Assembly (NCBI GenBank): GCA_038207085.1
Contig: JBBRAE010000007.1
Location: 64,655 to 128,654, forward strand
Length of the DNA stretch: 64,000 bases
Direction: 5' to 3'
Origin: Armatimonadota bacterium
GTDB taxonomy: Bacteria; Armatimonadota; UBA5829; DTLH01
The first letter of the stretch is position 1. Every line of letters starts with the position of its first letter. The notes beneath the pieces were generated by a model. That model worked only from the letters and a program-made list of their open reading frames with translations, had not been told where the DNA came from and did not search any database. Positions 12,991-63,418 of this stretch are shown here, piece by piece. The position numbers were made by a program, and so were the translations under genes.

Positions 12991-13725
12991 TCAGGACTTA
13001 CTTGCCGGGGTCGTATCCTCAACCTGTTTCTGGGACTCGGCTTGGATAAGCCGCTCATACTCAAGCGGGTGATGGGCCTTCAATTCTTCTTCGGATATCT
13101 GTCCGTCTATCCAGACGCGGCTCATCGGGAAGCACTGCGGGTTCAGGTGAACGTGATAGCAGTGCCAGATGATGATCGCAAGAAACGCGAGGAGCGCTTC
13201 GTAACTGTGGACGACCTGCGCGACGTCGAGCACCCACTTTGGCAGCACAATCATCGCCTGGCCCTCAAACCACAGCACAAACCCGGTCACGATCATCACA
13301 ATCGAGCCCCACCCCATCGCCAGATACTCGAACTTCTCGATCCAGGTGTATCTGTCATACTTCGGCCCGGTGCGAGACAGCCCGAGGAAGAGCTTCATTT
13401 GACCGATCAGGTCGAACGCATCCTTGGGCTTCGGTACCATTGCCAAAAGCTCCTGACGCCCGCGCTTGGTGATAATCGACCAGCCGGCGTGGTAGATGCA
13501 GACGCCGATCAGCATCATCGCCGCGATCCTGTGGATCAGCCCGCGCACGGCCATCCCGCCCATCGATTTGACGATCAACTCCGACGCCGCCGCGTCGTGG
13601 TATCTAAGCGGAAGTCCAGTGACGACAAGCACGGTAAAGCTCGTCATCAGAACGATATGCTGCATCCGTTGGGAGCGCGTCAGTCTCTCAAAATAGCGCT
13701 GACCAGTCTTCTTTTGGCTGCCCAT
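12991..13725 (-). CDS. Membrane di-heme cytochrome b (FdnI/HyaC/CbcL-like b domain)
   Basis: RMQH...LVVTGLP, IHRIAA, YTWIEKFEY, VHSYEA...WHCYHVH; AGGAGA RBS before ATG 13725. Confidence 0.85.
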   Translation of the reverse strand: MGSQKKTGQRYFERLTRSQRMQHIVLMTSFTVLVVTGLPLRYHDAAASELIVKSMGGMAVRGLIHRIAAMMLIGVCIYHAGWSIITKRGRQELLAMVPKPKDAFDLIGQMKLFLGLSRTGPKYDRYTWIEKFEYLAMGWGSIVMIVTGFVLWFEGQAMIVLPKWVLDVAQVVHSYEALLAFLAIIIWHCYHVHLNPQCFPMSRVWIDGQISEEELKAHHPLEYERLIQAESQKQVEDTTPASKS

Positions 13726-13736
13726 GTGATATTCTC

Positions 13737-14987: not shown

Positions 14988-15182
14988 AGCGCGATCCAAT
15001 GTCCAAGTTTGCCCGCTTTTTCGTTACAAAGCACTACGGGACACGTCAGAACCCGGTGTAATTACAAGCTCTTCTACAGTCACTATAACGCGCCATTACC
15101 ACACATGTCAAGAGTTATTAAGCTTCCGAGCAGGTGTAAGGTCGCGTTTGCGCACGCGTGGCTTTTCCGCTAACATGTAGCT

Positions 15183-22249: not shown

Positions 22250-22287
22250 CTCAACACACTTTCACATCCCACAATAACCGTTCCCAC

Positions 22288-22314
22288 GTAGGGGCGGACC
22301 AATGTGTCCGCCCT
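22288..22314 (+). repeat. GTAG-type REP-like palindrome
   Basis: GTAGGGGCGGAC-CAATGT-GTCCGCCC between actA and ccoN. Confidence 0.55.
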
Positions 22315-22333
22315 TTCCCGGCGACGCTCAAAT

Positions 22334-22882
22334 CTACCAATGACAAGTATAACAACTAACCGAAAAGTTGTTCTTCCAATGACAGTCCACACAGAATCTC
22401 ATGCTGAACTGCTTCACGGTGCGCACCCGATCCATCGCCTTGATGTTACCGTGGCACACACTGCAGTCGAACCGTTTCCCCCACGATGTCGCGTTGGTCA
22501 GGTGCGCCTGATGGCTAAAATGCACAAAGTCCGGCACCCGGTTCACCCGCACCCACCTGATGGGTTTCTTGGTGTCATAACTCGCAAGCACATCCTTGAT
22601 CGGCCTCCACTGCGAGGCTATTACCTTATGGCAGAGCACGCACTTCTCCACGGGAGGAATCGCCGCGTTCGACGACCGAAGCGCCGAGTTGTGACAGAAG
22701 AAGCAGCTCATCTGCTTCGTCCCCGCGTGGACCCTGTGACTGAACGGCACCGGCTGCGACGGCCCGTAATGGTTCGCCCTGCCAAGCACAATCGCCGACG
22801 CCGCGATGATCGCCAAGAGCACAATCGCAATCACGACCACGATCCGAATCACAAGCTGCCTGCGTGGAAGATGGACGATCAA
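22334..22882 (-). CDS. actA: Alternative complex III pentaheme cytochrome ActA
   Basis: PSQPVPFSHRVHAG, five CxxCH, PIRWVRVNRVPDFVHFSH. Confidence 0.9.
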   Translation of the reverse strand: MIVHLPRRQLVIRIVVVIAIVLLAIIAASAIVLGRANHYGPSQPVPFSHRVHAGTKQMSCFFCHNSALRSSNAAIPPVEKCVLCHKVIASQWRPIKDVLASYDTKKPIRWVRVNRVPDFVHFSHQAHLTNATSWGKRFDCSVCHGNIKAMDRVRTVKQFSMRFCVDCHWKNNFSVSCYTCHW

Positions 22883-24081
22883 CTTATGACCTCCATCTTC
22901 TGACGCCCATGAAGCGCCTCATCAGCCGACGACACCGCCGGATACCGTGCCAAAAACGCCGTGACAGACAGAACAAACGCACCCAGGAAGAAAAGCACGC
23001 TAAACGCCGGTATGACACTTAGCGGCGAAACCGCAGATCCAACGACCGAGGGAGCCACCAGCACATATCTCTCGGCTGCGACCCCAAAGATCACAATGCC
23101 AGCCGTGACAGAAAGCCACTTCGGCGAATGCTTGAGTTCGCGGCTCTGGAGCATGATGAACGGAATCGCGTAGCCTACAAAAAACGCCGGCCAACCCACA
23201 TACGGCCACCCCCCTCTGTAGTATCGTTCGATGATAAAGAACGTCTCTTCGGGAATATTGCCATACCAGATCGTCAGATACTGAGCAAAGAAAAGCCCCA
23301 TAGAAAAGAGCGAAAACCCAAGCATCAGGTTCCCCATATCGTTGAAATGCTGAGGAGTGAGAAACCTCATCGCACCGAGTCGCGACCTGAGAAACGTCGC
23401 AAGTATCACAAGCCCCGCCATCCCCGCGTATATATTCGTGATCCAGATGTAGGGCGCAAACATGGTGCTGTACCACTCAGGCGAAAGCGACATAATGAAG
23501 TCGTAGGCAACAATCGAGGACGCCACCACATAGGTAAACACGCACGCGGTCCCGATCGCCGTAAGCCTCCATTGCCCCCTGTCCGAGAGCTCCTCACCGC
23601 CCTGTTTTCGAGCGTCTGCAACGAGAGTCCAGCGCACAAGAAGCGCAAAGAGCACCCCGAGCGCACCAAGAAGCACAATGTCCCGAATCACCATAAACGG
23701 CAGATTGAGCCACGCCTCTTTGTCATGCGCAGGCTCATGTAGCCAAGTCACCCAGCTGTGAGCTCCGACCAAAAGCAGCATCATAACAAAGAAACATACC
23801 GGCCAGAAGAATATCACCGAGTGCCCGATCCGGTTGACCACCGGCGTCCACTTCGCCTGCGCCACCCGAAACACCGCCGACCACGCAAGCATCCCGCTTG
23901 AGACGCCCATAAACACCACAAACCAGACTACAAGCCAAACCCACGTATCGACGGGCGCGACAAAGAACCCGACGACCGCCGCGACTATCCCCAAAACGAC
24001 AGCCACAATCGCCGCGAGTTTCAGTCCTCCGGGCACGGTGAACCGCGACTCCATCTGATCTGGGCTGGCCTCAATACTCAT
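22879..24081 (-). CDS. actF: Alternative complex III membrane subunit ActF
   Basis: DFIMSLSPEWYSTMF, QYLTIWYGNIPEE; NrfD-like paralogue. Confidence 0.85.
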   Translation of the reverse strand: MSIEASPDQMESRFTVPGGLKLAAIVAVVLGIVAAVVGFFVAPVDTWVWLVVWFVVFMGVSSGMLAWSAVFRVAQAKWTPVVNRIGHSVIFFWPVCFFVMMLLLVGAHSWVTWLHEPAHDKEAWLNLPFMVIRDIVLLGALGVLFALLVRWTLVADARKQGGEELSDRGQWRLTAIGTACVFTYVVASSIVAYDFIMSLSPEWYSTMFAPYIWITNIYAGMAGLVILATFLRSRLGAMRFLTPQHFNDMGNLMLGFSLFSMGLFFAQYLTIWYGNIPEETFFIIERYYRGGWPYVGWPAFFVGYAIPFIMLQSRELKHSPKWLSVTAGIVIFGVAAERYVLVAPSVVGSAVSPLSVIPAFSVLFFLGAFVLSVTAFLARYPAVSSADEALHGRQKMEVIS

Positions 24082-24640
24082 AGACTTCCACCGCTCCTGC
24101 GTTTCTAAGCAACTCCATAGTGCTTTCTACCTGCTCCGGCGCACACGACGCTCCTACTCCAAACAAATCGCCGCTGAACCTCGGGTCATACTCAGGCATC
24201 GCCTGACGCCCGAATATCAGCCGCGCATAGTAAAGGGTCGCAACAAACGCCGCAATCGCCCCCAGGAGTATCGTCCCTTCATAGGCGATGACCACATACG
24301 GCACGCGTGAGACCGGCGGCTTGCCGCCGACGATCAACTTATAGATGTTCGACGTCGCAACCGCCATATAGAAGAACAGACAAAGCCCAGTGATCGCCCC
24401 AACGGTGGCTACCCCTCGAACCGGGCTCACGTTTCTCCCTGTTAGTATCTCGACAACAGTCTCTTTAAAACTCCTGGGGATCATCCGAGCTGGCATCAGC
24501 GGCCCGAGTTCATCGAGATTCACCGGCCCATAGGCTTCATAGTCAGGAACCCCCGACACCTGAAGCGACCCGAGCGCCCGTTTGAACGCATCAAAGTCTT
24601 CGAACTTGCCGACCACTTTTCGAAGGACAACCGCCGTCAT
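24071..24640 (-). CDS. actD: Alternative complex III subunit ActD
   Basis: LIVGGKP...PYVVIAYEGTIL, YDPRFSGD. Confidence 0.85.
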   Translation of the reverse strand: MTAVVLRKVVGKFEDFDAFKRALGSLQVSGVPDYEAYGPVNLDELGPLMPARMIPRSFKETVVEILTGRNVSPVRGVATVGAITGLCLFFYMAVATSNIYKLIVGGKPPVSRVPYVVIAYEGTILLGAIAAFVATLYYARLIFGRQAMPEYDPRFSGDLFGVGASCAPEQVESTMELLRNAGAVEVYEY

Positions 24641-25968
24641 TCCTCTTCCATCCCTTCGAGCGCGACATCCTTCAGCTCACCCATCGGCACCGACGGGAAG
24701 AACTTCACAAACGACAGGAAAAGCAGCAGGAAGAGCCCAAGCGACCCAAGGCTGATGCACCCCTCAACCAGCCTGGGCGCATATATCCCCCACGACGACG
24801 GCACGAAGTTGTTCGCAAGCCCCCCGACGATAATCACAAACCGCTCGAACCACATCCCGACGTTGATCAGAATCCCAATGATAAACAGCCACGTCCAGTT
24901 GGTGCGAAGCTTCTTCCAGAAAAGCGTCATCGGCACAATGACGTTTAGGAACACCATCGCCCAATAGAACGGCCCGTACGGGCCCGTCGCGCGAATCACA
25001 TTGAACTGCCGCTCAAAGATATCGCCGCTGTACCAGGCCATAAACACCTCGACGATATAGGCGTAACCCACAATCGACCCAGTAAGAATGAGAAGCAGTG
25101 CCATCTGCTCAAAATAGTATAGCGAAAGAATCCTCTCAAGCTTGAGCACCTTCCTAAGGGGTATCAAAAGCGTAATCACCATCGCAAGTCCGGAGTGAAT
25201 CGCCCCTGCGACGAAGTACGGCGCAAATATCGTCGTGTGCCACCCGGGGTTGATCGACATCGCAAAGTCCCACGAGACAACGCTGTGCACGGATATTACC
25301 AGGGGTGTCGCAAGCGCCGCGAGCGCGAGATACCCCCGCGCGTAGTGCCTCCACTTGTCCCAACTCGGCGTCCACCCAAACGCGAGTATCGAATAGAGCT
25401 TCTTTCGCCACCCCTCAGACCTGTCACGCACCGTCCCAAGGTCAGGAATCAGCCCAAGGTAGAAGAAAAGCAGGCTCACAGTGAAGTAAGTAGTAACCGC
25501 GACCACGTCCCACACCAAAGGTGACTTGAAGTTCGGCCACAAATACCTCCAGTTCGGATACGGCAGTATCCAGTAAAACACCCAAACGCGCCCGAGGTGG
25601 ATCAGTGGGAAGAGCCCCGCTGTCATAATCGCAAAGAGCGTCATCGCCTCAGCCGCACGGTTGATCCCGTTGCGCCACTTGGTCCTGAAAAGAAACAGAA
25701 TCGCCGAAATGAGCGTCCCTGAGTGTGCAATTCCGATCCACCACACGAAGTTCGTGATGTATGTTCCCCACGAGACCGGCACGTTCAGCCCGGTGACCCC
25801 CATCCCGAGGAAATACTGCACAGCGTAGGCCGCGACGCCGATCACGAGCATCAGGAAGCACACCCCAAGCGTGATGAGATAACCCCTCGACGGCCTGTCG
25901 AGCGACCCTATTATCAGATCATCAATCTCGCGCAAGACTCCGTTTGCCACGTCAAATCTCCTCGACAA
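24637..25968 (-). CDS. actC: Alternative complex III quinol-oxidising NrfD-like subunit ActC
   Basis: NFVWWIGIAHSGTLISAIL, HLGRVW, SPLVWD, VHSVVSWDF, WHTTIFAPYFVAGAI. Confidence 0.95.
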   Translation of the reverse strand: MSRRFDVANGVLREIDDLIIGSLDRPSRGYLITLGVCFLMLVIGVAAYAVQYFLGMGVTGLNVPVSWGTYITNFVWWIGIAHSGTLISAILFLFRTKWRNGINRAAEAMTLFAIMTAGLFPLIHLGRVWVFYWILPYPNWRYLWPNFKSPLVWDVVAVTTYFTVSLLFFYLGLIPDLGTVRDRSEGWRKKLYSILAFGWTPSWDKWRHYARGYLALAALATPLVISVHSVVSWDFAMSINPGWHTTIFAPYFVAGAIHSGLAMVITLLIPLRKVLKLERILSLYYFEQMALLLILTGSIVGYAYIVEVFMAWYSGDIFERQFNVIRATGPYGPFYWAMVFLNVIVPMTLFWKKLRTNWTWLFIIGILINVGMWFERFVIIVGGLANNFVPSSWGIYAPRLVEGCISLGSLGLFLLLFLSFVKFFPSVPMGELKDVALEGMEEE

Positions 25969-28843
25969 TCCGCTTGAGATAGATCACCGCAGGCTTGGTG
26001 TTCAGCTTATGGAGCGCCTGATAGGCCCTTGGGTCGGTTCTGACGATCCGAGAAACCTCCGAGTGCGGGTCCATCAAGTCACCAAACGTATATACCCCAG
26101 TCGGGCACGTCTGCTGGCACGCTGTGACGACCTCCCCATCGCGAGGCTCCCGACCTTCTTTACGCGCACTGATCTCCGCCTCGCGAATGCGTTGGATGCA
26201 GAACGTGCACTTCTCCATAACGCCTCGGTCGCGCACGGTCACATCAGGGTTCAGCCTCCAGTTCATCGGCTCGGGCCAGGTATAATGGAACCAGTTAAAC
26301 CGCCGCACCTTGTAGGGGCAATTGTTCGCGCAGTAGCGAGTGCCGATGCAGCGATTGTAGACCTGCATATTGATGCCTTCATCGCTGTGTGCCGCCGCAA
26401 ATACCGGGCAAACCGATTCACATGGAGCCGCGTCGCAGTGCTGGCAGAGCATCGGGTCAAAGAGCACCGGCGCGGCCTTTTGCGACCAGTCGATGTATGA
26501 ATCGATCCGAAGCCACGTCATCTCCCGACCCCACCTCGCGTCCCGAGCGCCGACTACCGCGACGTTGTTTTCCACATAGCACGCCGCCACGCAAGCCTCG
26601 CAGCCGATGCACTTGTCAAGATCGACCACAAGAGCCCACCGGTGCTTATCGTGATCGTGTCCGGGCTGAAAGTCCTCGCGCCCGTAGCCTTGGGGAAGCG
26701 GCATAGCGATCTTGTCGCGCTTCTCAGACTTACCGAGCCCCGTTACCCGTGCGATCCCTCGCCCGTGCTGGTCCTGACTCCCTCGAAGCCGGTTGAGCAC
26801 CAGTGTCGCATCACCCGGCCCAACCCGCACAGTCTGGGCAAACGTCGGAGTCATCTTCCAGCCATTGGCTCCGACACCTTTGGCGAACCGCCCATACTCG
26901 GTGTGCCCCTGCCCGATCGGAATAGCGATCGTCCCCGGCGCGACCCCTTCCCAGACATAGACCGGAGCCTCATACTGCGAAGACAACACTGTCATCCCAC
27001 CGCCTTCGACATCCCTTGTAACCCGAACAACATCTTTGGTCACGACGCCGAGCTTCCTCGCGGTCTCCGGGTGCATCTCGACCCAGGAGCCCCAGACAGT
27101 GCGAACGACCGGCTCAGGAATCTCCTGCAGTGTCCTCTTGTTCGCGCTTCGACCATCGTAGAAGCAGACGTGAGGGAATGTGTAGAGCTTGAGCTCGTCC
27201 TTACCAGGCGAGAAGAAGTCGAGCCGAGGAGTCCCGGCACGAGCCGCAGCACGCAGCGCAACTTTGAACGCTGGCGGCCCAGGCGCAGACGCACCGGACG
27301 CAGCGGGAGGCACATTGGTAGTGCGTCCGACCATCGGGCGCACATTACGCGACGCGGGCGAAGGAGTCCACTTGCCTCCAACCTGAACAACCGCCTCCCA
27401 CGCAGGCGCAACCGCAGTGACCTCTCCTCCCAGAGCTATGGGAGCGCCCCAGCGCCTTCTCAAGAACTCATAGTAAGAAGCAGCTCCGAGATCAGCCCCA
27501 GCCCGGCGGGCAAGCTCCAGAAAAATGTCCCCGGCAGGCCGGGTGTCGAATATACGGCCCATAGTAGGCTGCATCACGTTCGAAACATCGGGGTAAGGTT
27601 GATAGTCGCCCCAGGACTCAAGAAAATGGTCGATCGGAAGCACCCAGTTGGCGATAGCAGCGGTCTCATCGTAGTAAGGCGACATGTTGACTATGTGGCG
27701 GACGTTCTTCGCCGCTTCGACAAAGGCTCCCCAATACGCAAAAGCGGGGTTCGCCTGGTGCACGATCAACACATCGATGTTGCCCGCGCCCATATCGGCC
27801 ACAAGCGCGTCCATATCCTCACTCGGCGACACAAGCGAGAGCGCATGCGGCCTGCCGGTGTCGACCAGCCCGCCCCCTCGCGCCGAGTTGATCGCCATCG
27901 CAGCCCGGGCCGAATAGGCGTCGCCCCCCGGAAGGGCGATAGGCCTCGAAGCCGCCGCAAGCGCCCGCCCAGCCGCTCGGATGTCGTCGGCGTCGATCCC
28001 AAGCCGCTTCGCCACGGCATCTGCCGTAAACCCGGAAGGCGCGCCGATCCCAGCCTCCGAGGCAATCGCATAAACGACAGCTGCCTCAGATCCCGCTGGC
28101 ACGATGATCCTAAGGTCCGCGCTCGCAGCCGTAGCCGAAACCCTCGGCCCGACGTACACGAACTTAGCCCGACGCCCGCCTCTTGCTTCGCGAACAGCCC
28201 CAAACTGCCACGCAAACTCGACGGGGGATATCCAAGTCTCAAGAAAATCCGCAGAAGATGAGAGTATGAAGTCGCTTCCGGCAATGTTGAACCACGGCAC
28301 AACCCCGCCAGTGACATTCTTAATAGCCGAGTAGTCTATCGGCTCATATACAACGACTCGACCTCCGAGCGACCCCGCGAACGAGCGCATCAGAGCGTCA
28401 AGCGACCCCGACTGAAGATCAGTCACAACCGCAACCCGCCCCCGAGCCTCCCGAATCGCCGTTCCAAGCTCTGAAAGTGCATCATCCCACTTCACGGAAG
28501 CGAGCCGCCTCGATTCCCCTCGCCGTTTCGGTCGTTTCAGCCTGTCGGGGTCATACAGCCCGTCGAGCGATGCCTGACCACGCACGCAGAGCCTTCCAAG
28601 CGCCACCGGCTGAAGCGGGTTCCCCTCGCACTTGACTGCATGCACCTCGCGCGTCCGCACTAGCATGCCGCACCCCGCAGGGCACTCTCTGCAGCTCGTC
28701 GCATACCACAGACTTGCTCCGGGGATTAGATCATCAGGCTGATGGATGAACGGGATGAGGTGCTCATACCCCGCCGCCGAGAGACTAAGTCCTCCCGCGA
28801 TCAGCCCCATTCCCTTCAGCAATTCACGACGTGTAAGAGGCAA
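25952..28843 (-). CDS. actB: Alternative complex III subunit ActB (molybdopterin-oxidoreductase-like plus Fe-S domain)
   Basis: Tat motif LTRRELLK; C-terminal CIGCEACVAAC, CQHCDAAPC, CIGTRYC, MEKCTFC; GGAGG RBS before TTG 28843. Confidence 0.92.
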   Translation of the reverse strand: MPLTRRELLKGMGLIAGGLSLSAAGYEHLIPFIHQPDDLIPGASLWYATSCRECPAGCGMLVRTREVHAVKCEGNPLQPVALGRLCVRGQASLDGLYDPDRLKRPKRRGESRRLASVKWDDALSELGTAIREARGRVAVVTDLQSGSLDALMRSFAGSLGGRVVVYEPIDYSAIKNVTGGVVPWFNIAGSDFILSSSADFLETWISPVEFAWQFGAVREARGGRRAKFVYVGPRVSATAASADLRIIVPAGSEAAVVYAIASEAGIGAPSGFTADAVAKRLGIDADDIRAAGRALAAASRPIALPGGDAYSARAAMAINSARGGGLVDTGRPHALSLVSPSEDMDALVADMGAGNIDVLIVHQANPAFAYWGAFVEAAKNVRHIVNMSPYYDETAAIANWVLPIDHFLESWGDYQPYPDVSNVMQPTMGRIFDTRPAGDIFLELARRAGADLGAASYYEFLRRRWGAPIALGGEVTAVAPAWEAVVQVGGKWTPSPASRNVRPMVGRTTNVPPAASGASAPGPPAFKVALRAAARAGTPRLDFFSPGKDELKLYTFPHVCFYDGRSANKRTLQEIPEPVVRTVWGSWVEMHPETARKLGVVTKDVVRVTRDVEGGGMTVLSSQYEAPVYVWEGVAPGTIAIPIGQGHTEYGRFAKGVGANGWKMTPTFAQTVRVGPGDATLVLNRLRGSQDQHGRGIARVTGLGKSEKRDKIAMPLPQGYGREDFQPGHDHDKHRWALVVDLDKCIGCEACVAACYVENNVAVVGARDARWGREMTWLRIDSYIDWSQKAAPVLFDPMLCQHCDAAPCESVCPVFAAAHSDEGINMQVYNRCIGTRYCANNCPYKVRRFNWFHYTWPEPMNWRLNPDVTVRDRGVMEKCTFCIQRIREAEISARKEGREPRDGEVVTACQQTCPTGVYTFGDLMDPHSEVSRIVRTDPRAYQALHKLNTKPAVIYLKRIVEEI

Positions 28844-29027
28844 CTTTCTGTGACCCTCCGAACTTGCACTATCCGACAAACACTGGTACCATGCCCACGT
28901 AGCAAGTATGCTTATCCGTAATAAGAGTATTCTATCCAGGCTCAACAATTCCTACACCTTTTAGCTAACTATTTTTCGGGGTATACTGTTCCGTATCAAT
29001 CGACCGACCATACGGAGGAAGTTACTT

Positions 29028-31798: not shown

Positions 31799-31875
31799 CC
31801 CGCTTTATTCGTGAAGCGAATAAAGCTCTCGCTAGCAAAGCATTATTCACGCTCCTCGTGAATAATGCAGGCTAG
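31796..31875. repeat. Dispersed ~80-bp double-hairpin repeat
   Basis: TAGCCCGCTTTATTCGTGAAGCGAATAAAGC...GCATTATTCAC...GTGAATAATGCAGGCTAG. Confidence 0.85.
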
Positions 31876-33063
31876 AGCGATCTGGTTCCAGAGCTGTTTT
31901 CCAAATGGCGTCATCGGCCCGTTCTGATACTGGCTTGCCATCTGCCGAAGCACCTCCCGCGCAAGGTTGGCGTCTTTATACACGCTCCAGTAGCAGAGCG
32001 CCATTCGGTAAAGCGACATCTCAGCGTCAGAAGTCCCAATGAACTTGCCTGAGACGATGCGGTACACCTCAAGGGCACGGGTATACTGACCCGCTCGCTC
32101 CAGATTCCCCGCAAGGCGAATCAAATGAAGCGACCGATAGGTGTCCCACCGACCATTGATGTCGACAAGATAGTAGCCCACAAAGTCCGGGTCTTTGTCG
32201 ATCATCCCCGGCCCGGCTTTCGCCATCGCCTCATCGAGCATGGACATAGCATTGTGCTGCGCCGCGGGTCGAGCGAGGGCCCTCAGCAGCACGGGGTTTC
32301 CGGGGTCTTCATCCACCATCCCCATCAGCACGCTAAGCGGCAGATCGTTAGGGTCTTTGGTATCGGCTTGGATAGCTCTAACGTCCGAAACCGCGGCGCT
32401 GTCGCGTTTGACTCTATAGACAACACAAGCTGCGAGCCCGGCGATCGCACCGCCGACGTGGCAGAAGTGAGCGACCCCTCCGCCACCAAGCGACCGCATC
32501 AGAAACCCGTTCAGCACCTCAAGTGCGCAGAATCCGCCGAGCACCCAAATCGCCGCAACCTCCCACACCCCATACCATATCCAGATCAGCGGCCAGATGA
32601 AATACGCGACGCAGACCGTGCTCCACGAGTAGATAAACCAGTAAGCGCCGAACACTCCGAATATGCAGCCCGACGCGCCAATCAGATATGTGGGCTGTCC
32701 GTCCGGCCCCGTGCCGCTCATCACACCGTGCAAGAGAGCCCCCAAGAGCCCCGCAAGCAGATACAGCCCGAGATACTTCCCCGCCCCCAGCCTGTCCTCC
32801 ACCGGCGGCCCAAACACCCACAGCCCCACCATATTGGAGATAATGTGCGTTGGCCCGGCGTGCAAAAACGCCGAAGTGAGGATATTTATCGCAGGCGAGT
32901 TCCCAAGCGAGAACCCGTACGCCCGCATCACATCCTCACGAATCTGAAGCAGCGATTCAGTCGTGAAGATATACACGATCACATTAATCAGAATAATGCA
33001 GAGCGTAACATACGGAAAGTGCTTTATTGGGTTTTTAACGCGAAACGGAAACAGAAAGAACAA
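31843..33063 (-). CDS. Rhomboid intramembrane protease with C-terminal TPR-like domain
   Basis: SAFLHAG..HIISNM, IGASG, AHFCHVGG; helical C-terminal region. Confidence 0.88.
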   Translation of the reverse strand: MFFLFPFRVKNPIKHFPYVTLCIILINVIVYIFTTESLLQIREDVMRAYGFSLGNSPAINILTSAFLHAGPTHIISNMVGLWVFGPPVEDRLGAGKYLGLYLLAGLLGALLHGVMSGTGPDGQPTYLIGASGCIFGVFGAYWFIYSWSTVCVAYFIWPLIWIWYGVWEVAAIWVLGGFCALEVLNGFLMRSLGGGGVAHFCHVGGAIAGLAACVVYRVKRDSAAVSDVRAIQADTKDPNDLPLSVLMGMVDEDPGNPVLLRALARPAAQHNAMSMLDEAMAKAGPGMIDKDPDFVGYYLVDINGRWDTYRSLHLIRLAGNLERAGQYTRALEVYRIVSGKFIGTSDAEMSLYRMALCYWSVYKDANLAREVLRQMASQYQNGPMTPFGKQLWNQIALACIIHEERE

Positions 33064-33114
33064 GCCGCCCTACACCCTCTCATGCACCAAGTGTAACACT
33101 TCGATTACGGACAG

Positions 33115-33260
33115 CCACAGCCCTTCCAACTACTGCTGCGTTGCAACAGGTGTCCGAGGAACACCCGAGCATCCCACTATTCGTCCCAATCCTCAGCCCA
33201 ACTACTGCTGCGTTGCAACCGTCAAGACAGAGGTTCATTTTGAGATCGAAAACCTCAGCC
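33115..33260 (-). CRISPR. Mini CRISPR-like array: 8-nt repeat remnant, 33-nt spacer, 29-nt repeat, 43-nt spacer, 33-nt degenerate repeat
   Basis: Minus strand: GGCTGAGG (33260-33253); GTTGCAACGCAGCAGTAGTTGGGCTGAGG (33219-33191); GTTGCAACGCAGCAGTAGTTGGAAGGGCTGTGG (33147-33115); unique sequence between them; next to a RuvC nuclease gene. Confidence 0.75.
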
Positions 33261-33345
33261 TGTTCAGGGTCCGGCACATCTGTGTTCACGCGAACCGCCA
33301 GTAATTGCGCCACACGAATACTGTCCGCGCAGTCCTGCTTGTCAA

Positions 33346-33541
33346 TGGGCGCATGCAGCCTTAGTTGCGCTGTTCCCGCTGCAGCGGGAAACAATGGTTC
33401 CGCCCGCAGTACCCGTTCAAAGGTATGGTTTCCCGACAGACTAGCTGTCTTCCGAAATACCACAGAGCGGCATGACGACGACAATGGGACGAGCTCCCGA
33501 CGCCGTAGCTTCGGGCAGCCTCCTGCCGCCGGTATGCGGAG
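33346..33541 (-). ncRNA. Candidate tracrRNA/scaffold RNA with anti-repeat
   Basis: Minus-strand CAGCGCAACTAAGGCTGCATGC (33372-33351) is complementary to the repeat at 18 of 23 aligned positions; several hairpins (e.g. TTCCCGCTGCAGCGGGAA); boundaries uncertain. Confidence 0.55.
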
Positions 33542-35002
33542 CTAGTCCGCACACATCTGTTGAGCAAATTCTTGCCAGGTTCTATTCTTAGCTGATTTGT
33601 TCTTCTTCTTTACTTCTCGACATTCCTGCATGTAGAGATATTTTCGACCGATATTAATCGCCGCAACCTCGTCTGAGTTCTCGTGCTCGAAGCTGCACGT
33701 AACGCAGTGGAACTTGAACCGAGTGACCGCACCCCCCGCCCTCACCAAACGGTTTCGCTTGTCGACGCATCCGCAATTTGGACAGGTTTGGCTCGTATAC
33801 GCCGCTCCGACCTCGTAAACCGGGACACCAGCAGCCTTGCATTTGTACAGAATGACTTCTCGAAATGTGCCGTAGGTGTTCGACTTCCGCCCGTGGTTAC
33901 TCGGCGATTTGCTCGCAGACGAATTGGCCCTGCGCATGTTGGACAAATCCTCGATCACTACAACACTCTCATTCTGCCGCGCAAGGGTGAGTATGTTGTT
34001 AACAGTGATATGAACGATCTCTTTATTAATTCGCTTGTATCTAAACCTGTAATGCCCCCCATTCGCCTGGGCTTTGGCGGTCTTCTGAGTAATGCTCTTG
34101 ATCTGATCCACATGCAGCCCGTTGACGCTCACTGATTCCAGCAGTTCGCCGCTTGTGGTTAATACAGAGGCTGCCGCAATTCGCTTCTTGCCGAGATCGA
34201 CACCAATAATAGTACGAGCCGGAGCAGATTTTCGTTCTGGAATCTCAAATGTGACATAGAGAAAGAACCGCCCGTCGCGCTCGACGACCCGGCCAGTCGC
34301 AGGCCGATATGTCTCCAACTTCCTCTGAAGCCATTTGTTCATTGCCAGCGGAAAGAGTCTACAAGGCTTCTTACGCGCAACCACTCGATCTTTAGTTCCA
34401 ACGATCACCAAATCATCTGAAGCGGGTGAAAAACCTGAGTTGCCGGATTCAATGTACAGCCCCGCAAAGTAGTTTCCACTAGCGGACCTCGCAATATAGA
34501 ACCCCTTCTCCTTTTTGTAGTAGTAGAAGTCCAGCGGCAGGTATTCGGACTTCTTGCCACAGCCGGACACCAGCCCTGAAAGTGTTGAATACTCCATTTC
34601 CGAAGTCGCTACATGACCGTTAAGCGTAAAGTCATCCAGCAACGCGGGTAAGTCATCTTCTCCGACGACACGGCCCGTTGGAAAACCCGGATCAAAATCT
34701 TCCTGTTTGAGCGCAAAATAGGACTTAAGTTGCGAATCCAACGAGCGATACACGGCGTGTTTCATCGTCGGCTCCATAAGATGAAGCTCCGGTATCGTTT
34801 TCAGATTGTCATATACCCACTGAGTAAGACGTTTCTTGCCTTCGACCCCGTTAATAATCTCCTCAAGCTCATCTGCACAACCGGCAGCCATTTTCAAGAA
34901 ACCGGCTACCGTCGTAGTCCACAGTTCCATCGCCGTCTTAAGAGCCCTACCCTTTTCACCGCGCGTCTGCAATAGCTCAAATGCGTAGGTTTGAAATGAC
35001 AT
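33542..35002 (-). CDS. TnpB/Cas12f-like RNA-guided RuvC nuclease (486 aa)
   Basis: RuvC-I IIGVDLG, RuvC-II VVVIEDL, Zn ribbon YTSQTCPNCG...HCVTC, RuvC-III NSDEVAAINI. Confidence 0.9.
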   Translation of the reverse strand: MSFQTYAFELLQTRGEKGRALKTAMELWTTTVAGFLKMAAGCADELEEIINGVEGKKRLTQWVYDNLKTIPELHLMEPTMKHAVYRSLDSQLKSYFALKQEDFDPGFPTGRVVGEDDLPALLDDFTLNGHVATSEMEYSTLSGLVSGCGKKSEYLPLDFYYYKKEKGFYIARSASGNYFAGLYIESGNSGFSPASDDLVIVGTKDRVVARKKPCRLFPLAMNKWLQRKLETYRPATGRVVERDGRFFLYVTFEIPERKSAPARTIIGVDLGKKRIAAASVLTTSGELLESVSVNGLHVDQIKSITQKTAKAQANGGHYRFRYKRINKEIVHITVNNILTLARQNESVVVIEDLSNMRRANSSASKSPSNHGRKSNTYGTFREVILYKCKAAGVPVYEVGAAYTSQTCPNCGCVDKRNRLVRAGGAVTRFKFHCVTCSFEHENSDEVAAINIGRKYLYMQECREVKKKNKSAKNRTWQEFAQQMCAD

Positions 35003-35086
35003 AGTGTCAGCGCCCCCTTCAATACCGGCAGATTACCGTATATGGCGTATCCTTGATTAGTTGCCGGCAAGCCTGCCCGCTATAAT

Positions 35087-35116
35087 ACTGTAATACAGTT
35101 GCCCAAGCATTGTCAA
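35087..35116 (-). promoter_or_regulatory. Putative sigma70 promoter of the nuclease gene with an overlapping palindrome
   Basis: Minus strand TTGACA-18 nt-TACAGT; palindrome ACTGTA-T-TACAGT (35087-35099) covers the -10. Confidence 0.45.
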
Positions 35117-35148
35117 TTGTAAGACTGGACACCTGTCACCTTGTTGCA

Positions 35149-36183
35149 TCATCGCACCCACACAACATTCCCTGCAATCTCTACCTCAACATCCAGAAAC
35201 TTCTGCACCGTCCAGACGTTGGTTCGTAGATGCTCGGTGATCTCTTCGGCTGAGAACTCGCTCTCGCCATCGGCAAGCGCGGCTGGGACGATGAGTTGAT
35301 CGGCCATGTGCTTGTCGAGCGCCGCGCCCGAACCGTGCCAGGCCAAAAACTCCTCAGCCGCCTCGTGTCCCACCTTCTCAGCTCGTTTCCCAAGCGCCCC
35401 GAGCGAGGTGAACCCCGCCTTCACATCCCCCGCGCTGTAGAGCACAAAGGCAACTGTCCCCTTACCCGGCGACGGGTACTCGGTCGTTTCCCCCACACAC
35501 TCGATCCCCGCCTCCCGAAGCCGCTCAGCAACCGAGGAAAGCTGCCGGTCAGCGATCGACATCGGCAGGTTCGACACAGCCGAAGTCACGTGCACACTCC
35601 CCTCGGGTCTGTCGACGAGGCGAAGCGGACGAAGCGAAGTCGCGGGCAATATCTCCACATCGATCTGTCCACCACCTATTGGGTAGTACCCGGCCTTCAC
35701 CACTCGGTAATGCGTCAGCACGCCCATTCGCGAGAGCACCGGGAGATAGACATCGTCGACATAGTTGGAGTTCGGACTCATCGGCACATGCGTTCCGCCG
35801 CGGATCGTCACGCGCGAGCGTTTGTCCGTAAGGGCAAGCGGCAAGAGCACGGTCTGAAGTATCAGGTTGACAGCCCCCGCGGACGCTTTGATGTCAGAGA
35901 CGTCGAAGCGATAATCCCCCGCTTGCGTCTTCCCGGGGCGAAACTCAAGCGTCCCGCTCCCAATGGAGTCGCCGGAGAGACTTCCATCGCAAATATCGGC
36001 AACCGCGCGGGCAGCGGTGATGTGCTGGGGTTGAAGCCCCGGCCTCACGCGCCCAGCCCTGATGCGCTCGATCCTGACAGGCCGCCCGAGAATAGCCGAA
36101 AGCGAGAGACTGGTGCGCAGAATCTGCCCGCCGCCCTCGCCGTAGCTTCCATCTATAACAAGAACCTCGCCTCTTGCAGTCAA
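35149..36183 (-). CDS. rtcA: RNA 3'-terminal phosphate cyclase
   Basis: DGSYGEGGGQILR, PGLQPQH, GGTHVP, GYYPIGGG, HMADQL, ITEHLRTN. Confidence 0.95.
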   Translation of the reverse strand: MTARGEVLVIDGSYGEGGGQILRTSLSLSAILGRPVRIERIRAGRVRPGLQPQHITAARAVADICDGSLSGDSIGSGTLEFRPGKTQAGDYRFDVSDIKASAGAVNLILQTVLLPLALTDKRSRVTIRGGTHVPMSPNSNYVDDVYLPVLSRMGVLTHYRVVKAGYYPIGGGQIDVEILPATSLRPLRLVDRPEGSVHVTSAVSNLPMSIADRQLSSVAERLREAGIECVGETTEYPSPGKGTVAFVLYSAGDVKAGFTSLGALGKRAEKVGHEAAEEFLAWHGSGAALDKHMADQLIVPAALADGESEFSAEEITEHLRTNVWTVQKFLDVEVEIAGNVVWVR

Positions 36184-37545: not shown

Positions 37546-38892
37546 TTACTTGCCAATGCAGAAATCGCTGAAGATTCGCTCGACGAGATCATCCGAAGCT
37601 GTATCCCCTGTGATCTCCCCAAGGCTGGCTCTAGCGGCTACAAGATCAATCGGCCAAAGGTCCATCGATGCGCTGAGTTCCACGCCCTCTATAACCCGAT
37701 GCAGGCTCTCCGCCGCCGACACAAGCGCCTGACGATGCCTGATATTGCCGACAAACACCCCTTCGGAGGGCCCACCACGAAGCGCCGCCTCGGCGATTCT
37801 ATCCTCAAGCGCCTCGATCCCCTCCCCGGTCTTGGTCGACACCCTCACCCACGCGGCGTCGATGGCCGCAGCCGCAATATCAATCTTGTTAGCGACAACA
37901 ATGGCCCCACCTCCGGCTCGCGCAAGAATCTCCCTGTCTTCGTCCGTCACCCCAGTTGAAGCGTCAAACACCACAAGCACGATCTCCGCCGCCGCCATCG
38001 CCCGCTCAGTGAGCTCCACCCCAATACGCTCAACCTCGTCCGAAGTCTCACGCAAGCCCGCCGTATCGGTCGCGACAACCGGAATACCCCGAATGTTAAC
38101 GGTCTCTTCGATGGTATCGCGCGTAGTCCCCGGGACCGGTGTAACGATCGCCCGAGCCTCGCGAAGAAGCGCGTTCAGCAGGCTAGACTTGCCGACGTTC
38201 GGTCTGCCCACGATCGCAAGGCTTATCCCCTCCCGGTATACTCTGCCCCGCTCGCTCGACTCAATCAGCCGCTCGATCTCACGGACATGCCCCCGAACTT
38301 CCGACGAAATAACCGCGTCGTCGGGCTCCTCTACGTCATCTGGAAAATCGATTGACGCCTCGATCCGCGCAAGTATCGACAAGATCCCAGTGGCAACCTC
38401 CGAAACCCTGAGCGAAAGCTCTCCCCCAAGCTGCCGAAGCGCCAGCCTCTGAGCCTGATCGGTGCGCGCCCGGATGATATCGTTCACAGCCTCGGCCTGC
38501 GCAAGGTCGATTCGCCCGTTTAGAAAAGCCCTTTTGGTAAACTCCCCCGGCCCCGCTGGAGATGCGCCAGCGGCAAACACCGCCCCAAGCACCCGACGAA
38601 GCGTCACCGACCCACCGTGGCACGATATCTCGACTACATCCTCACCAGTATAGCTCCGAGGCCCCCGAAAGACGGTCACAAGCACGTCGTCGATCACCTC
38701 GCCCGACGCCGAGTCAACAAGCTCCCCGTGGTGCGCGCTGTGCGAGACAAACCCCTCGACGCCGCCAAACACCCGTCCAGCCACCAAAAACGCCTCCGGC
38801 CCGCTAAGACGAACGACACCAATCCCCGCCGGTCCAACCGCCGTCGCAATCGCCGCTACCGTATCTGTAAGAGGTTCTCGATATTCACCCAT
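37546..38892 (-). CDS. mnmE: tRNA modification GTPase MnmE
   Basis: GEFTKRAFLNG, GRPNVGKSS, GTTRD, DTAG, FCIGK C-terminus. Confidence 0.97.
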   Translation of the reverse strand: MGEYREPLTDTVAAIATAVGPAGIGVVRLSGPEAFLVAGRVFGGVEGFVSHSAHHGELVDSASGEVIDDVLVTVFRGPRSYTGEDVVEISCHGGSVTLRRVLGAVFAAGASPAGPGEFTKRAFLNGRIDLAQAEAVNDIIRARTDQAQRLALRQLGGELSLRVSEVATGILSILARIEASIDFPDDVEEPDDAVISSEVRGHVREIERLIESSERGRVYREGISLAIVGRPNVGKSSLLNALLREARAIVTPVPGTTRDTIEETVNIRGIPVVATDTAGLRETSDEVERIGVELTERAMAAAEIVLVVFDASTGVTDEDREILARAGGGAIVVANKIDIAAAAIDAAWVRVSTKTGEGIEALEDRIAEAALRGGPSEGVFVGNIRHRQALVSAAESLHRVIEGVELSASMDLWPIDLVAARASLGEITGDTASDDLVERIFSDFCIGK

Positions 38893-38958
38893 GACAATTA
38901 CCAAAGCCCGGCGGTATTACCCGCCGGGCCGATATTTCTTTATAATTATTACTCTTGC

Positions 38959-39606
38959 CTATTTCCGAGGAGAAATCACCACGTGGCGCTGGTCCCCAAC
39001 GCCTTCGCTGTAGGTGACGACGCCCGGATCGTCCGCAAGCGCAACGTGGATGATCCTGCGGTCTCTTGCCGACTGCGGATCAAGCACAGCCTCTTCGTTG
39101 TGCTCCTTAACCGCCGCCGCAAGGTCCGTAGCCATAGTCTCAAGGGTCTTCTGATGCCTGTCGCGGTAGCCTTCGGCGTCGAGCACGATTCGCACCCTTC
39201 GCGGGTCGACCCTGTTGATCGCAACCGCCATAAGATACTGCAGCGCATCGATCGTCTGTCCGTGCCGTCCAATCAGCCGTCCAAGGTCTTCGGACGCCCC
39301 CTGAATATCGATCGAAATCTCGTCGTCGGTCTCAGAAACGATCACCGGACGAGCATCGAACTCCATCGCGTCGAGAATCTTGGTCAGAAGCTCTGAGATA
39401 TACGTGCCGTTCTCACTTTTGGCTTCAGCATCTCCACCGGCGATAGTCGCCTTGATTTTGACTTCGCTCTGTCCCAGTCCAAAGAGGCCTTTTGAGCCTT
39501 CGTCGATCACTTCGGACTGCACCTGCTCCACAGACACTCCAAGCTGCTCCGCCGCAGCCTCAATGGCCTCTTCGACAGTCTTACCAGTTGTTTCAATCCA
39601 GTTCAT
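38959..39606 (-). CDS. jag: RNA-binding protein Jag/EloR (Jag_N, KH, R3H)
   Basis: GKTVEEAI, LIGRHGQTIDALQ, RRIIH. Confidence 0.95.
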   Translation of the reverse strand: MNWIETTGKTVEEAIEAAAEQLGVSVEQVQSEVIDEGSKGLFGLGQSEVKIKATIAGGDAEAKSENGTYISELLTKILDAMEFDARPVIVSETDDEISIDIQGASEDLGRLIGRHGQTIDALQYLMAVAINRVDPRRVRIVLDAEGYRDRHQKTLETMATDLAAAVKEHNEEAVLDPQSARDRRIIHVALADDPGVVTYSEGVGDQRHVVISPRK

Positions 39607-39645
39607 GAGGATGGTCCTCCAATTAACTCTGATATCGCCCGGTGA

Positions 39646-40986
39646 CTACCGGCGGCGTCTGCGCCTGCGGGCTACCCGCTGTCCCGTCGTCGAGTCTGCA
39701 GCAACCGGAGCAGCCGCTTGCTCGGCAGTTGGCCCGCCGTGGATGATATGATACTGCTGCCAAGTGGTCAGCACGTTAAATATGAACCAATAGAACACGA
39801 ACGCCGACGGGAACCCTCCGATGATAAAGAAGAACATCACCGGCATCATAATCGACATCATCTTCTGCTGTTCGGCCTGCGTCGGGTCAACAATGGAAAT
39901 CCGCTGTGACACGATCATACTCGCCGTATAAAGAAGCAGCAGGATCAGGTCCGGCTCGGCAAGGTTCTTACCTGTCACCCAGATGGGCGACTGCACAAGC
40001 CAGGTCCAACTCCACTTGTGAACCAGCGGCTCCCAGCCAATCCAAAGGAACGTCCCTTGTGCAAAATGTATTTCATAGGACTGGATCATCGCGTAGACTG
40101 CAAGAAGCACCGGAAACTGTGCAAGAAGCGGCAGGCAGCCCATCAGCGGGTTGATGCCGTGCTCCTTGTAGAGGTCCATGGTCCTTTTGCCGATCTCGGC
40201 CTGATCCCCCTTGTGCTTCTCCTGAATCTCCTTGATCAGCGGAGAAATCTTCTGCATCTCCTTCATGCTCTTGAACTGAGCCTTGGTAAGTGGAGTAATC
40301 AGAATCTTTACTATCACCGCGACGAGCACCAGGGCAAACCAGTAGCTGAAAGCCGGTTTGGCTCCAGTGAGATTCACAAGAAAATCGATTATCTGATAAC
40401 GCAGCATGCCCCTGTTCGTGTCGTCAAGACGCGTCTCGACCCGCTGCTGATAAACGACCGCCTGCTGGACAGCTGAGGAGACCCGAGTGGCTTCTTCAGG
40501 TGTATAGACATCCACAAGCTCAGTCTTTGACCGAGGGAACTCCTGGGCGATCTGCTTAAACGTCTCCCGTGCGCTTTTGTCGTTTTGAACAGAAACCTTC
40601 TTGGACGACAAACCGAACCAGGCAGACTCCACTTTGGTATTGGAAAACTGCTTTTTGAAAGGCTGATCGGTTGTCGTGCCGATCGGCATCCCCGCGAGAA
40701 TCTTTGCCTTGGCAAGCTTCGCTTCAGCTACTTCAACACTTGGGAATGCGCCCCTGCCGGAGGGTTTCCCCTCTTTTATAGCCTCATCATAGCGCTTGAT
40801 AGCGCTCTTGAACTTCTCAGCCTGTTCCACATTGTTATTGGACTTCTGGGCTTCGATAGCGACCTTATTACCGTCCTCAAGCGCTCTAGCAGCCTTTGGG
40901 ATGCCGGCGAAGACGATACTGGGGATGATAAATATCGCAAATATTGCGACCGCCAGTGCGGCGAATGAAGATTTGGATAGTCTCAT
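39646..40986 (-). CDS. yidC: Membrane protein insertase YidC
   Basis: SMKEMQKISP, LYKEHGINPLMGCLP, FYW; position in the rnpA-yidD cluster. Confidence 0.92.
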   Translation of the reverse strand: MRLSKSSFAALAVAIFAIFIIPSIVFAGIPKAARALEDGNKVAIEAQKSNNNVEQAEKFKSAIKRYDEAIKEGKPSGRGAFPSVEVAEAKLAKAKILAGMPIGTTTDQPFKKQFSNTKVESAWFGLSSKKVSVQNDKSARETFKQIAQEFPRSKTELVDVYTPEEATRVSSAVQQAVVYQQRVETRLDDTNRGMLRYQIIDFLVNLTGAKPAFSYWFALVLVAVIVKILITPLTKAQFKSMKEMQKISPLIKEIQEKHKGDQAEIGKRTMDLYKEHGINPLMGCLPLLAQFPVLLAVYAMIQSYEIHFAQGTFLWIGWEPLVHKWSWTWLVQSPIWVTGKNLAEPDLILLLLYTASMIVSQRISIVDPTQAEQQKMMSIMMPVMFFFIIGGFPSAFVFYWFIFNVLTTWQQYHIIHGGPTAEQAAAPVAADSTTGQRVARRRRRRR

Positions 40987-40989
40987 AGG

Positions 40990-41202
40990 TTACCGAACGG
41001 GATCCTCTCCACCGGGCGCCCAAGGATGACATCGCGCGATGCGCGCAAGCCCCATCCACGTCCCCTTAAGTGGTCCGTATTTCTCGATGGCCTGAGCGGT
41101 GTACTCCGAGCAAGTTGGGATGTATCTGCAAGTCCTCGGCCAAAAACGCTTCGAAGCCTGCTGATACACCTGCCTGATAATAAACACCATCACGCGACGC
41201 AT
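40990..41202 (-). CDS. yidD: Membrane protein insertion efficiency factor YidD
   Basis: [10 protein letters not shown]...[16 protein letters not shown]. Confidence 0.95.
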
Positions 41203-41564
41203 CAGTTATCACACTCTCTTTGAACTCGGATCGCTCCGGCTCGCATGAGAAGTTTCTGCACATCCCGAAAAACGTCGGCAAAAGACCTGCCCGCTACGGC
41301 ACGCCTTGCGACCACGACAATATCGGCGCTACCGGTAATGTGTGGAAGCAGCGCCCGCGCGGCTTCTCTCATCAGCCTCTTGGCACGATTTCTGTATACG
41401 GCTCCCCCGACTTTTTTTCCGGCAGTAAACCCAACTCGTAATCGGGTACCACCAGGCCTGGGTAGTACGTACACAACAACGAGGTCCGTCGCAAACGACC
41501 TTCCTCGTCCATATACAGCCTTAAAGCATCTGTTATCTTTGAGCCGCGCGTGCGCAGGCAGCAT
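41202..41564 (-). CDS. rnpA: RNase P protein component
   Basis: [23 protein letters not shown] (RNR motif). Confidence 0.95.
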
Positions 41565-41588
41565 TTCGCCGTAATCCTTAGGCGGTGC

Positions 41589-41723
41589 TTAGACCGTGAG
41601 CTTCCAGCGGCCCTTTTCTCGACGGGAAGCCACAACCTTGCGACCACCCTTGGTGGACATCCGGCTCATGAACCCGTGGACACGCTTTCGCCTTCTAACT
41701 TTGGGTTGAAAAGTTTGTTTCAT
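41589..41723 (-). CDS. rpmH: 50S ribosomal protein L34
   Basis: [44 protein letters not shown]. Confidence 0.97.
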
Positions 41724-41840
41724 ACTACTCCAAAACCCCCTTAACCAGCAGATTATACCACAACCAAACCGGGTGTTACAATACCGATACAGCACAAAAT
41801 TGCAGAGATGTTGAATTATAACAATTATCTCAACACGATC

Positions 41841-41864
41841 GTGCCGAGTCTCTCGACTCGGCAC
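41841..41864. terminator. Hairpin downstream of herA
   Basis: GTGCCGAGTC-TCTC-GACTCGGCAC, perfect 10-bp stem. Confidence 0.45.
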
Positions 41865-41902
41865 GCACATCTCAAGGGTCTACAGACCCGCCGACATTGC
41901 AC

Positions 41903-63416: not shown

Positions 63417-63418
63417 TG

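Follow-up and report, generated by a model that had tools for sequence, protein, structure and literature searches.

A 64-kb stretch of DNA from an Armatimonadota bacterium (contig JBBRAE010000007.1, positions 64,655 to 128,654; hereafter the window, at its full length of 64,000 nucleotides, nt) harbors, between rtcA and a rhomboid gene, what is very probably a stand-alone miniature effector module of a type V CRISPR-Cas system, of the Cas12f-like kind. Such systems are already known, namely as the heterogeneous types V-F and V-U, which are associated with arrays only, these lying downstream of the effector, and the family found here is a rare, unnamed and mis-annotated branch of this known kind. 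A preliminary description had proposed an RNA-guided nuclease system that is compact and of the type V-F kind, and this proposal is upheld by the anatomy of the gene and its repeats, the conserved association of relatives with arrays, the co-variation between anti-repeats and repeat, and the similarity of the predicted fold to Cas12f1. Its suggestion of a new Cas12f clade or a TnpB-to-Cas12 intermediate holds in that the family is a small distinct clade lying under curated cut-offs, but is tempered by the large numbers of arrays-only miniature type V lineages already on record (PMC10691335), among which the family may or may not be.

The module lies in the rtcA-rhomboid interval, and its parts follow one another on the minus strand in the order nuclease gene, RNA resembling a trans-activating CRISPR RNA (tracrRNA; hence tracr-like RNA), leader and mini-array:

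33542-35002, minus strand: cas12f-like gene, 486 amino acids (aa), recognized by open reading frame (ORF), Pfam and conserved residues
33346..33541, minus strand: putative tracr-like RNA gene, ~200 nt, conserved and structured, beginning right after the stop codon
33485..33490, minus strand: anti-repeat 1, GTCCCA, complementary to the repeat 3' end TGGGAC
33350..33372, minus strand: anti-repeat 2, CAGCGCAACTAAGGCTGCATGCG, complementary to repeat nt 3-26
33220..33345, minus strand: leader, from tracr-like RNA to array, with a conserved motif, CATTGACAAGC...GCTGCGCGGAC, at its start
33183..33219, minus strand: CRISPR repeat 1, intact, 37 nt, homologous to the 37-nt repeats of related loci L001, L002 and L003
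33148..33182, minus strand: single spacer, 35 nt, a length within the 33-39 nt of relatives
33111..33147, minus strand: terminal repeat, its first 22 nt equal to repeat 1 and its last 15 nt degenerate

Exact 22-nt copies of GTTGCAACGCAGCAGTAGTTGG can be found at 33126-33147 and 33198-33219, 72 nt apart, and none of 100 shuffles of the window (0/100) gave two matches, even with three mismatches allowed. Comparison with homologous loci shows the true repeat unit to be 37 nt, GTTGCAACGCAGCAGTAGTTGGGCTGAGGATTGGGAC, running from 33219 to 33183. While the two repeats of the preliminary description thus stand as exact 22-nt copies, the second copy matches the 37-nt unit in its first 22 nt only, so that the array has one spacer and not the two formerly counted. 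Degenerate distal repeats can likewise be found in L001 and L002, which fits a leader on the nuclease-gene side. An 8-nt remnant of the repeat had also been reported upstream; this match (GGCTGAGG, 33253-33260, minus strand) is the sole repeat 8-mer elsewhere in 32950-35150 and carries no weight, since about two such matches are expected by chance (arithmetic). The non-coding stretch downstream of the gene is present on the same strand as described, its length being 322 nt from stop codon to first repeat (33541 to 33220) and not ~280 nt, and it holds no credible gene. Three mechanical ORFs over this stretch, at 33080-33484 (minus), 33141-33545 (plus) and 33361-33567 (minus), have no family match and were rejected as genes because they cross repeats and spacers. 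The CATTGACAAGC...GCTGCGCGGAC motif (33320-33346, minus strand) lies directly after the tracr-like RNA, in the same place as in L001, L002 and L003, and holds a TTGACA hexamer; it could be either the promoter of the array transcript (precursor CRISPR RNA) or the 3' end of the tracr-like RNA, and a promoter scanner made no call at it.

Regarding the protein, its size of 486 aa (489-504 aa in relatives) falls within the miniature type V-F range, Cas12f effectors being about 400-700 aa long (PMC13186708). Pfam matches are Cas12f1-like_TNB (62.9 bits, residues 377-451) and RuvC_1 (32.2 bits, residues 262-355), giving the architecture by which type V effectors are recognized, i.e., a single RuvC-like domain that carries a D-E-D triad and has a zinc-ribbon (TNB) insert interrupting it. 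The intact acidic residues and CxxC..CxxC zinc ribbon noted earlier are confirmed by comparison: the triad D269 (GVDLG), E351 (VIEDLS) and D444 (NSDEV) and the zinc-ribbon cysteines C407, C410, C433 and C436 are invariant in 6/6 family members and in 39/39 rows of a wider alignment. Among PADLOC models the best are Cas12f (93.7 and 91.2 bits), aligned over residues 225-458 only. The Pfam OrfB_IS605 domain, which TnpB matches do carry, is absent from the nuclease.

The association with CRISPR arrays is conserved among relatives. A word-indexed search of 5.8 billion proteins with the nuclease as query returned five full-length relatives, at 71, 67, 67, 38 and 39% identity, the next scores belonging to TnpB-like proteins matched in their C-terminal half only. 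Among 1.84 billion cluster representatives, searched exhaustively with HMMER, 6 matches fell below 1e-30 and 274 below 1e-10, which contributed one member (P0121, 41%) together with 440-600-aa fringe proteins of 26-33% identity; a second word-index search with a 39-row profile added no named Cas12 relatives. The clade therefore totals seven members including the query, the six other full-length relatives being 38-71% identical to it. In a scan of one genome per species, which produced 67 loci, full-length relatives were found in four, all from Armatimonadota metagenome-assembled genomes (MAGs): L001, L002 and L003 at 64-67% identity and L005 at 37%. Downstream of the gene, on the same strand and 290-360 nt past the stop codon, a CRISPR array is present in each of these full-length relatives from genome records (4/4):

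L001: 5 repeats, the 37-nt repeat homologous to that of the window
L002: 15 repeats, the 37-nt repeat homologous to that of the window
L003: at least 6 repeats, the contig end being reached, the 37-nt repeat homologous to that of the window
L005: 6 repeats, homologous

Homologous repeats accompanied by different spacers, which had been proposed as something to look for in related loci, are thus what was found, and conserved spacers were not seen; nor did the homologues show IS605 or IS607 ends without repeats. Spacers are unrelated between loci, the best ungapped match among 38 inter-repeat stretches covering 20 positions and involving a 107-nt stretch that holds a missed repeat. A conserved array link with spacers differing from locus to locus is what a type V system should display. 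With Tandem Repeats Finder, an adjoining array was detected in 6/67 loci, namely the four above and the near-full-length L004 (Alphaproteobacteria, 27% identity) and L010 (Solibacter, 26% identity), and in none of the remaining loci (0/61), which comprise short TnpB-like matches and the N-terminal fragment L006.

Some of these more distant loci have features of their own. In L004 (225-2306) and L010 (9437-11814), longer ORFs of 575 and 589 aa abut the arrays without a gap of ~300 nt, and spacers are 29-30 nt, a layout that recalls Cas12n, where the tracrRNA lies inside the 3' end of the ORF. L006 (10001-10618), a second match in the MAG of L005, covers residues 1-195 only (33% identity) with no array nearby and represents an N-terminal fragment or else a second copy that has diverged. 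L068 (3971-5437), on the Pseudoalteromonas spongiae plasmid NZ_CP023400.1, is 26% identical over 93% of the query, is annotated as a TnpB family protein and lies beside conjugation genes; it has no array downstream, and a 60-nt tandem repeat (2.5 copies) lies ~300 nt upstream.

The stretch following the stop codon is itself conserved and structured. Across five loci (window, L001, L002, L003 and L005), the tracr-like stretch has a mean column identity of 73%, compared with 49% upstream of the gene. Of the 51 pairs in the RNAalifold consensus, 12 show compensatory changes. Pairing holds in 95.9% of cells on this fold, versus 38-50% when partners are slid; in a shuffle test, 0/500 shuffles reached the observed values on four of five measures and 1/500 on the fifth (further pair types). 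A covariance model built from the RNA and run over the window and 67 loci (1.2 Mb) recovered its five training sequences only, at 110-222 bits, the next score being 18 bits, with no match in L004, L006 or L010. An Rfam scan of 32900-35300 found no family, only noise (mir-2774, 18.3 bits against a gathering score of 51).

Complementarity to the repeat is maintained through changes in both partners. Anti-repeat 1 co-varies with the end of the repeat, as GTCCCA/TGGGAC in the window, L002 and L003, GTTTCA/TGAAAC in L001 and GTCTCAA/TTGAGAC in L005, and anti-repeat 2 pairs at -29.4 kcal/mol in the window (RNAduplex), cognate pairs of the other loci ranging from -24.6 to -31.7. In a 5 x 5 cross-test, the cognate tracr-like RNA was the best partner for 3/5 repeats, those of the divergent L001, L003 and L005, and came within 1.6 kcal/mol of the best for the window and L002. 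At the level of sequence, then, the non-coding stretch looks as a tracrRNA should look, and the arrangement typical of type V-F, a tracr-like RNA between effector and array and complementary to the repeat, can be recognized.

The fold of the nuclease, modeled with AlphaFold2 from the 39-row alignment (predicted local distance difference test 87.3, predicted template modeling score 0.71), lies nearer to solved Cas12f structures than to TnpB. Foldseek against the PDB places AsCas12f first (7wju, E 2.5e-18, then 8j3r, 8dzj, 8j12 and 8j1j) together with OsCas12f (9nzs, 9nzq), with template modeling (TM) scores by target of 0.54-0.60; the first 10 ranks hold 6 AsCas12f chains, 2 OsCas12f and 2 PlmCasX, the Cas12f E-values running from 2.5e-18 to 1.2e-15. 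CasX, CnCas12f1, SpCas12f1 and Un1Cas12f1 come next, and TnpB follows later (ISFba1 8iaz, 1.1e-11; ISDra2 8h1j, 4.3e-11) at TM by target 0.42-0.47, although the TM-scores for Cas12f are themselves moderate, 0.46-0.60 overall. The 39-row profile scores solved structures as follows:

OsCas12f 9nzq: 132 bits
AsCas12f: 119 bits
Cas12n 9j09: 59.5 bits
ISDra2 TnpB: 58 bits
LaTranC 9jfq: 39 bits

In a tree of 43 self-chosen rows (7 family members, 22 distant relatives and 14 TnpBs), which contains no named Cas12 references and assigns no subtype, the family forms a clade (Shimodaira-Hasegawa-like approximate likelihood ratio test 99). Its neighbor there is a distant array-linked group (support 83), and it is separated from the sampled TnpBs (support 100). 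Look-alikes in the ESM Atlas include a cluster named Cas12f1 (score 0.97), to be taken as a lead only.

By analogy with Cas12f as described in passages of PMC13186708, the array transcript would pair with the tracr-like RNA through the two anti-repeat segments and so form a dual guide, one anti-repeat binding the 5' and middle part of the repeat and the other its last six bases beside the spacer. The protein would bind this dual RNA, find double-stranded DNA complementary to the spacer next to a putative protospacer-adjacent motif (PAM) and presumably cut it with its single RuvC site. The RNAs would have to be transcribed and processed, and a function in defence can be presumed. Because it has one spacer and no adaptation genes within 64 kb, the window module would hold a single guide of fixed specificity, unless Cas1-Cas2 were supplied from elsewhere.

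Several observations weigh against such a reading. The nuclease lies under the NCBIfam cut-offs of its two top models, with 98.7 bits for guided_TnpB, where 100 is required, and 89.9 for Cas12f2, where 450 is; both models match over residues 225-458 only, the Cas12f2 model representing subtype V-F2 only and the guided_TnpB model the shared RuvC half only. Among 25 relatives, 0/25 reach the Cas12f2 cut-off and 9/25 pass that of guided_TnpB. Sequence similarity to solved Cas12f structures is limited to the C-terminal half, even though the best PDB sequence matches are Cas12f-type chains (8j3r, E 3.6e-9). The RNA structure statistics come from five related sequences, and the fold was derived from these same sequences. 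Non-cognate pairings of tracr-like RNA and repeat are as stable as cognate ones in the window and L002, because the repeats of these two loci are near-identical. When the RNAs of the window are co-folded without constraints, anti-repeat 1 is partly paired with the 5' end of the spacer; between the first 12 spacer nt (GAATAGTGGGAT, 33171-33182, minus strand) and the final 12 nt of the repeat (GAGGATTGGGAC), 8/12 positions agree, and it is this resemblance that pulls anti-repeat 1 toward the spacer. The array is of minimal size, and TGGGAC, the pairing partner of anti-repeat 1, is no longer present in its terminal repeat. With regard to targets, the spacer of the window has no second copy in the window and no full-length match in phage or plasmid collections, the 40 spacers of all seven arrays have no target in 1.2 Mb (window and related loci), and the L002 array has none in phages. 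As all protospacer searches gave chance-level partial matches of 13-23 nt only, no PAM can be inferred.

Four other explanations can be weighed against a Cas12f-like module. The first goes further than the kind already known and is doubtful, if worth keeping in mind: the Armatimonadota clade, whose seven members show 38-71% identity and which has its own RNA scaffold, standing beside no other locus examined, might represent an undescribed type V lineage whose array was captured or generated independently of Cas12f1-3. Its guide scaffold would occupy the position of the TnpB omega RNA, abutting the stop codon, but be split into tracr-like RNA and repeat, and the one-spacer locus would be a natural near-minimal state between single-guide OMEGA and arrayed CRISPR.

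It is unlikely that the locus is a decaying relic, i.e., a larger Cas12f-like CRISPR locus that collapsed to one spacer and no longer provides immunity. The ORF is full-length with all catalytic and zinc ligands, and keeps 113/118 of the columns invariant across the five remaining family members, equal to the score of relatives with 5-15 repeats; the nuclease gene therefore does not look decayed. While the single spacer, the degeneracy of the terminal repeat over 15/37 nt, the missing adaptation genes and the failure to find a spacer target in the window, phages or plasmids are all to be expected of a relic, the tracr-like RNA has stayed intact, as have both anti-repeats, all of which continue to match the intact repeat, and degenerate distal repeats also occur in the working-looking L001 and L002 arrays.

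Domestication as a single-guide effector, with the fixed spacer aiming cutting or binding at one host or mobile-element sequence for regulation or exclusion, is improbable indeed. A single fixed guide without an adaptation module is what it would entail, and exaptation of Cas12f relatives with minimized arrays is documented in passages of the literature (PMC10691335; PMC13472631), but the catalytic triad intact here is lost in the exapted lineages described there (PMC10691335). Close relatives, moreover, have ordinary multi-spacer arrays with diverse spacers, no partner gene is conserved, the neighbors differing in every locus, and no self-match of the spacer exists within the window, i.e., in 64 kb of genome.

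That the protein is a TnpB of IS200/IS605 or IS607 with an omega or right-end RNA, the repeats being a coincidence or features of transposon ends, has been largely refuted and is hardly credible, for although public records label relatives 'transposase' or 'IS605 OrfB family transposase', guided_TnpB is the top NCBIfam match and the 26%-identical Pseudoalteromonas plasmid relative has no downstream array, there is no tnpA in the window or the 10-kb flanks of L002 and L005, the gene is single-copy in the window, full-length relatives have true arrays of 5 to 15 repeats with different spacers, and fold and profile are closer to Cas12f, without the Pfam domain of TnpB.

The genomic surroundings of the putative Cas12f-like module agree with the preliminary description as to its position, its lower guanine-plus-cytosine (GC) content and the lack of cas1, cas2, cas4 and tnpA in the window. 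Features flanking the module are:

35149-36183: rtcA (PF01137, 266.6 bits)
31843-33063: rhomboid gene (PF01694, 92.6 bits)
35087..35116, minus strand: promoter-like site upstream of the nuclease gene (TTGACA, 18 nt, TACAGT), from a consensus scan with 10/12 positions

The promoter-like site is weak evidence, as 3 such sites occur in the region against 1.7 expected. GC content is 0.49-0.55 over the module (500-nt windows, 32750-35249) versus 0.57-0.64 in most flanking windows. None of 51 window ORFs scanned belongs to the Cas1, Cas2, Cas4, Y1-transposase (tnpA) or serine-recombinase families; the scan covered 51/53 non-overlapping window ORFs of at least 90 aa, the nuclease gene and one antisense ORF being scanned separately. 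Both gene and module occur once within the window. Likewise, 20 ORFs in the 10-kb flanks of L002 and L005 include no cas1, cas2, cas4 or transposase family. Five neighboring genes of the window recur in none of seven related loci, the neighbors differing from locus to locus, and the DNA upstream of the nuclease gene is unconserved, with the 49% mean column identity mentioned above. Synteny comparison defines no insertion boundary or empty site. Considering that GC content is below that of the flanks, that neighbors do not recur and that upstream DNA is unconserved, the sequences suggest that the three-part module moves as a unit, and it looks horizontally acquired. The module is enclosed by a perfect inverted repeat of 10 nt, ACAGGTGTCC / GGACACCTGT (at 33146-33155 and 35127-35136); this was rejected as a transposon end, about 2.5 such pairs being expected by chance in 2.3 kb (arithmetic).

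The mnmE, jag, yidC, rnpA and rpmH cluster can be found at 37546-41870 of the window (minus strand), 2.4 kb from the module. The usual place of this cluster is near the replication origin, and the CRISPR module therefore lies in a core chromosomal neighborhood. Elsewhere in the window, an EcoRI-like restriction endonuclease ORF (PF02963, 53.8 bits; 62697-63958, minus strand) adjoins a D12-class N6-adenine methyltransferase fragment at the window edge, the two probably forming a type II restriction-modification pair. The region 20882-28948 (minus strand) holds an alternative complex III-like operon (ActD, NrfD-like and molybdopterin/Fe-S subunit) and a COX1 gene, multihaem cytochrome genes lie at 11799-14999, and a 53-nt unit forms a perfect tandem duplication (2.0 copies, 100% match) at 8850-8955, just past a major facilitator superfamily transporter gene.

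RNA-guided nucleases of less than 500 aa are wanted as genome editors for small delivery vectors, and divergent lineages may each bring a new PAM and a new guide scaffold. The present family is rare: apart from the query, billions of predicted proteins yielded six members. Public records mislabel it 'transposase', curated Cas12f models miss it, and the array of the window would escape array finders requiring three repeats. The five loci provide a ready design for a guide scaffold, comprising the boundaries of the tracr-like RNA, two anti-repeats and the repeat. The locus joins the arrays-only type V modules that move from one chromosomal context to an unrelated one; it leaves the current picture of type V origins unchanged, and the conceptual surprise is modest.

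With regard to known systems, TnpB (ISDra2 8h1j / 8exa, ISFba1 8iaz) shares with the window module the RuvC/zinc-ribbon core and a guide-scaffold RNA immediately 3' of the gene. Unlike TnpB, the window protein is ~80 aa longer, its guide consists of two parts, a tracr-like RNA and a repeat-spacer array, the module has neither tnpA nor transposon ends and is single-copy in the window, and its fold and profile match TnpB more weakly than Cas12f. Cas12n (V-U4) and TranC are, like the window module, compact, array-only, tracrRNA-using effectors close to TnpB. TranC clade 20, which averages 513 aa and has 3-12 repeats of 36-38 bp (bioRxiv 10.64898/2026.03.27.714800), resembles the family in size and repeats, a comparison made by description only, and passages of the same source list many compact Cas12f, Cas12n and TranC clades of similar sizes and repeat lengths (10.64898/2026.03.27.714800). 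In contrast to Cas12n and TranC, which reach profile scores of 59.5 (9j09) and 39 bits (LaTranC 9jfq) against 132 for Cas12f, the window module has its tracr-like RNA after the ORF and not inside it. Casδ, considered together with a Cas12 mining letter (PMC12721324, PMC13674389), is 867-936 aa long and was set aside as irrelevant.

Passages found in the literature mention no Armatimonadota effector of Cas12f size, the phylum appearing there only with the 860-aa Casπ, which does not prove the family unpublished. The 'greater Cas12f branch' is heterogeneous and linked to arrays only, not to Cas1, Cas2 or Cas4 (Altae-Tran et al., 2023, PMC10691335); its arrays are almost always downstream of the effector gene, and arrays are short in lineages recently derived from TnpB (PMC10691335). 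A further 40 candidate groups, V-U6 to V-U45, many of them metagenome-only, have been listed (PMC10691335); one supplementary file of that study, which lists no group members, contains neither 'Armatimonad' nor 'JACPPP'. Compared by description only, the window module is like this branch and these groups in its TnpB-derived effector, its short downstream array and its lack of Cas1, Cas2 and Cas4.

The closest solved systems are AsCas12f and OsCas12f (V-F1; 7wju, 8j12, 8dzj, 9nzq/9nzs). The family is unlike them in its 15-18% identity in structural alignments (at the TM-scores of 0.46-0.60 given above), in the N-terminal half of the window protein, which has no sequence-level match to them, in scores below curated Cas12f2 cut-offs and in its host phylum, Armatimonadota. 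Cas12f function is defined by the homodimer state (PMC13186708), an asymmetric homodimer acting on one guide RNA, and the likeness is known here from sequence and predicted monomer fold. Like AsCas12f and OsCas12f, the window protein is miniature (486 aa versus 422-433 aa) and has a C-terminal half made of RuvC and zinc ribbon, and among solved structures they are its best profile and fold matches. Shared as well are the order of effector, tracrRNA and array on one strand, the 37-nt repeats, the absence of adaptation genes and a long multi-stem tracr-like RNA with anti-repeats.

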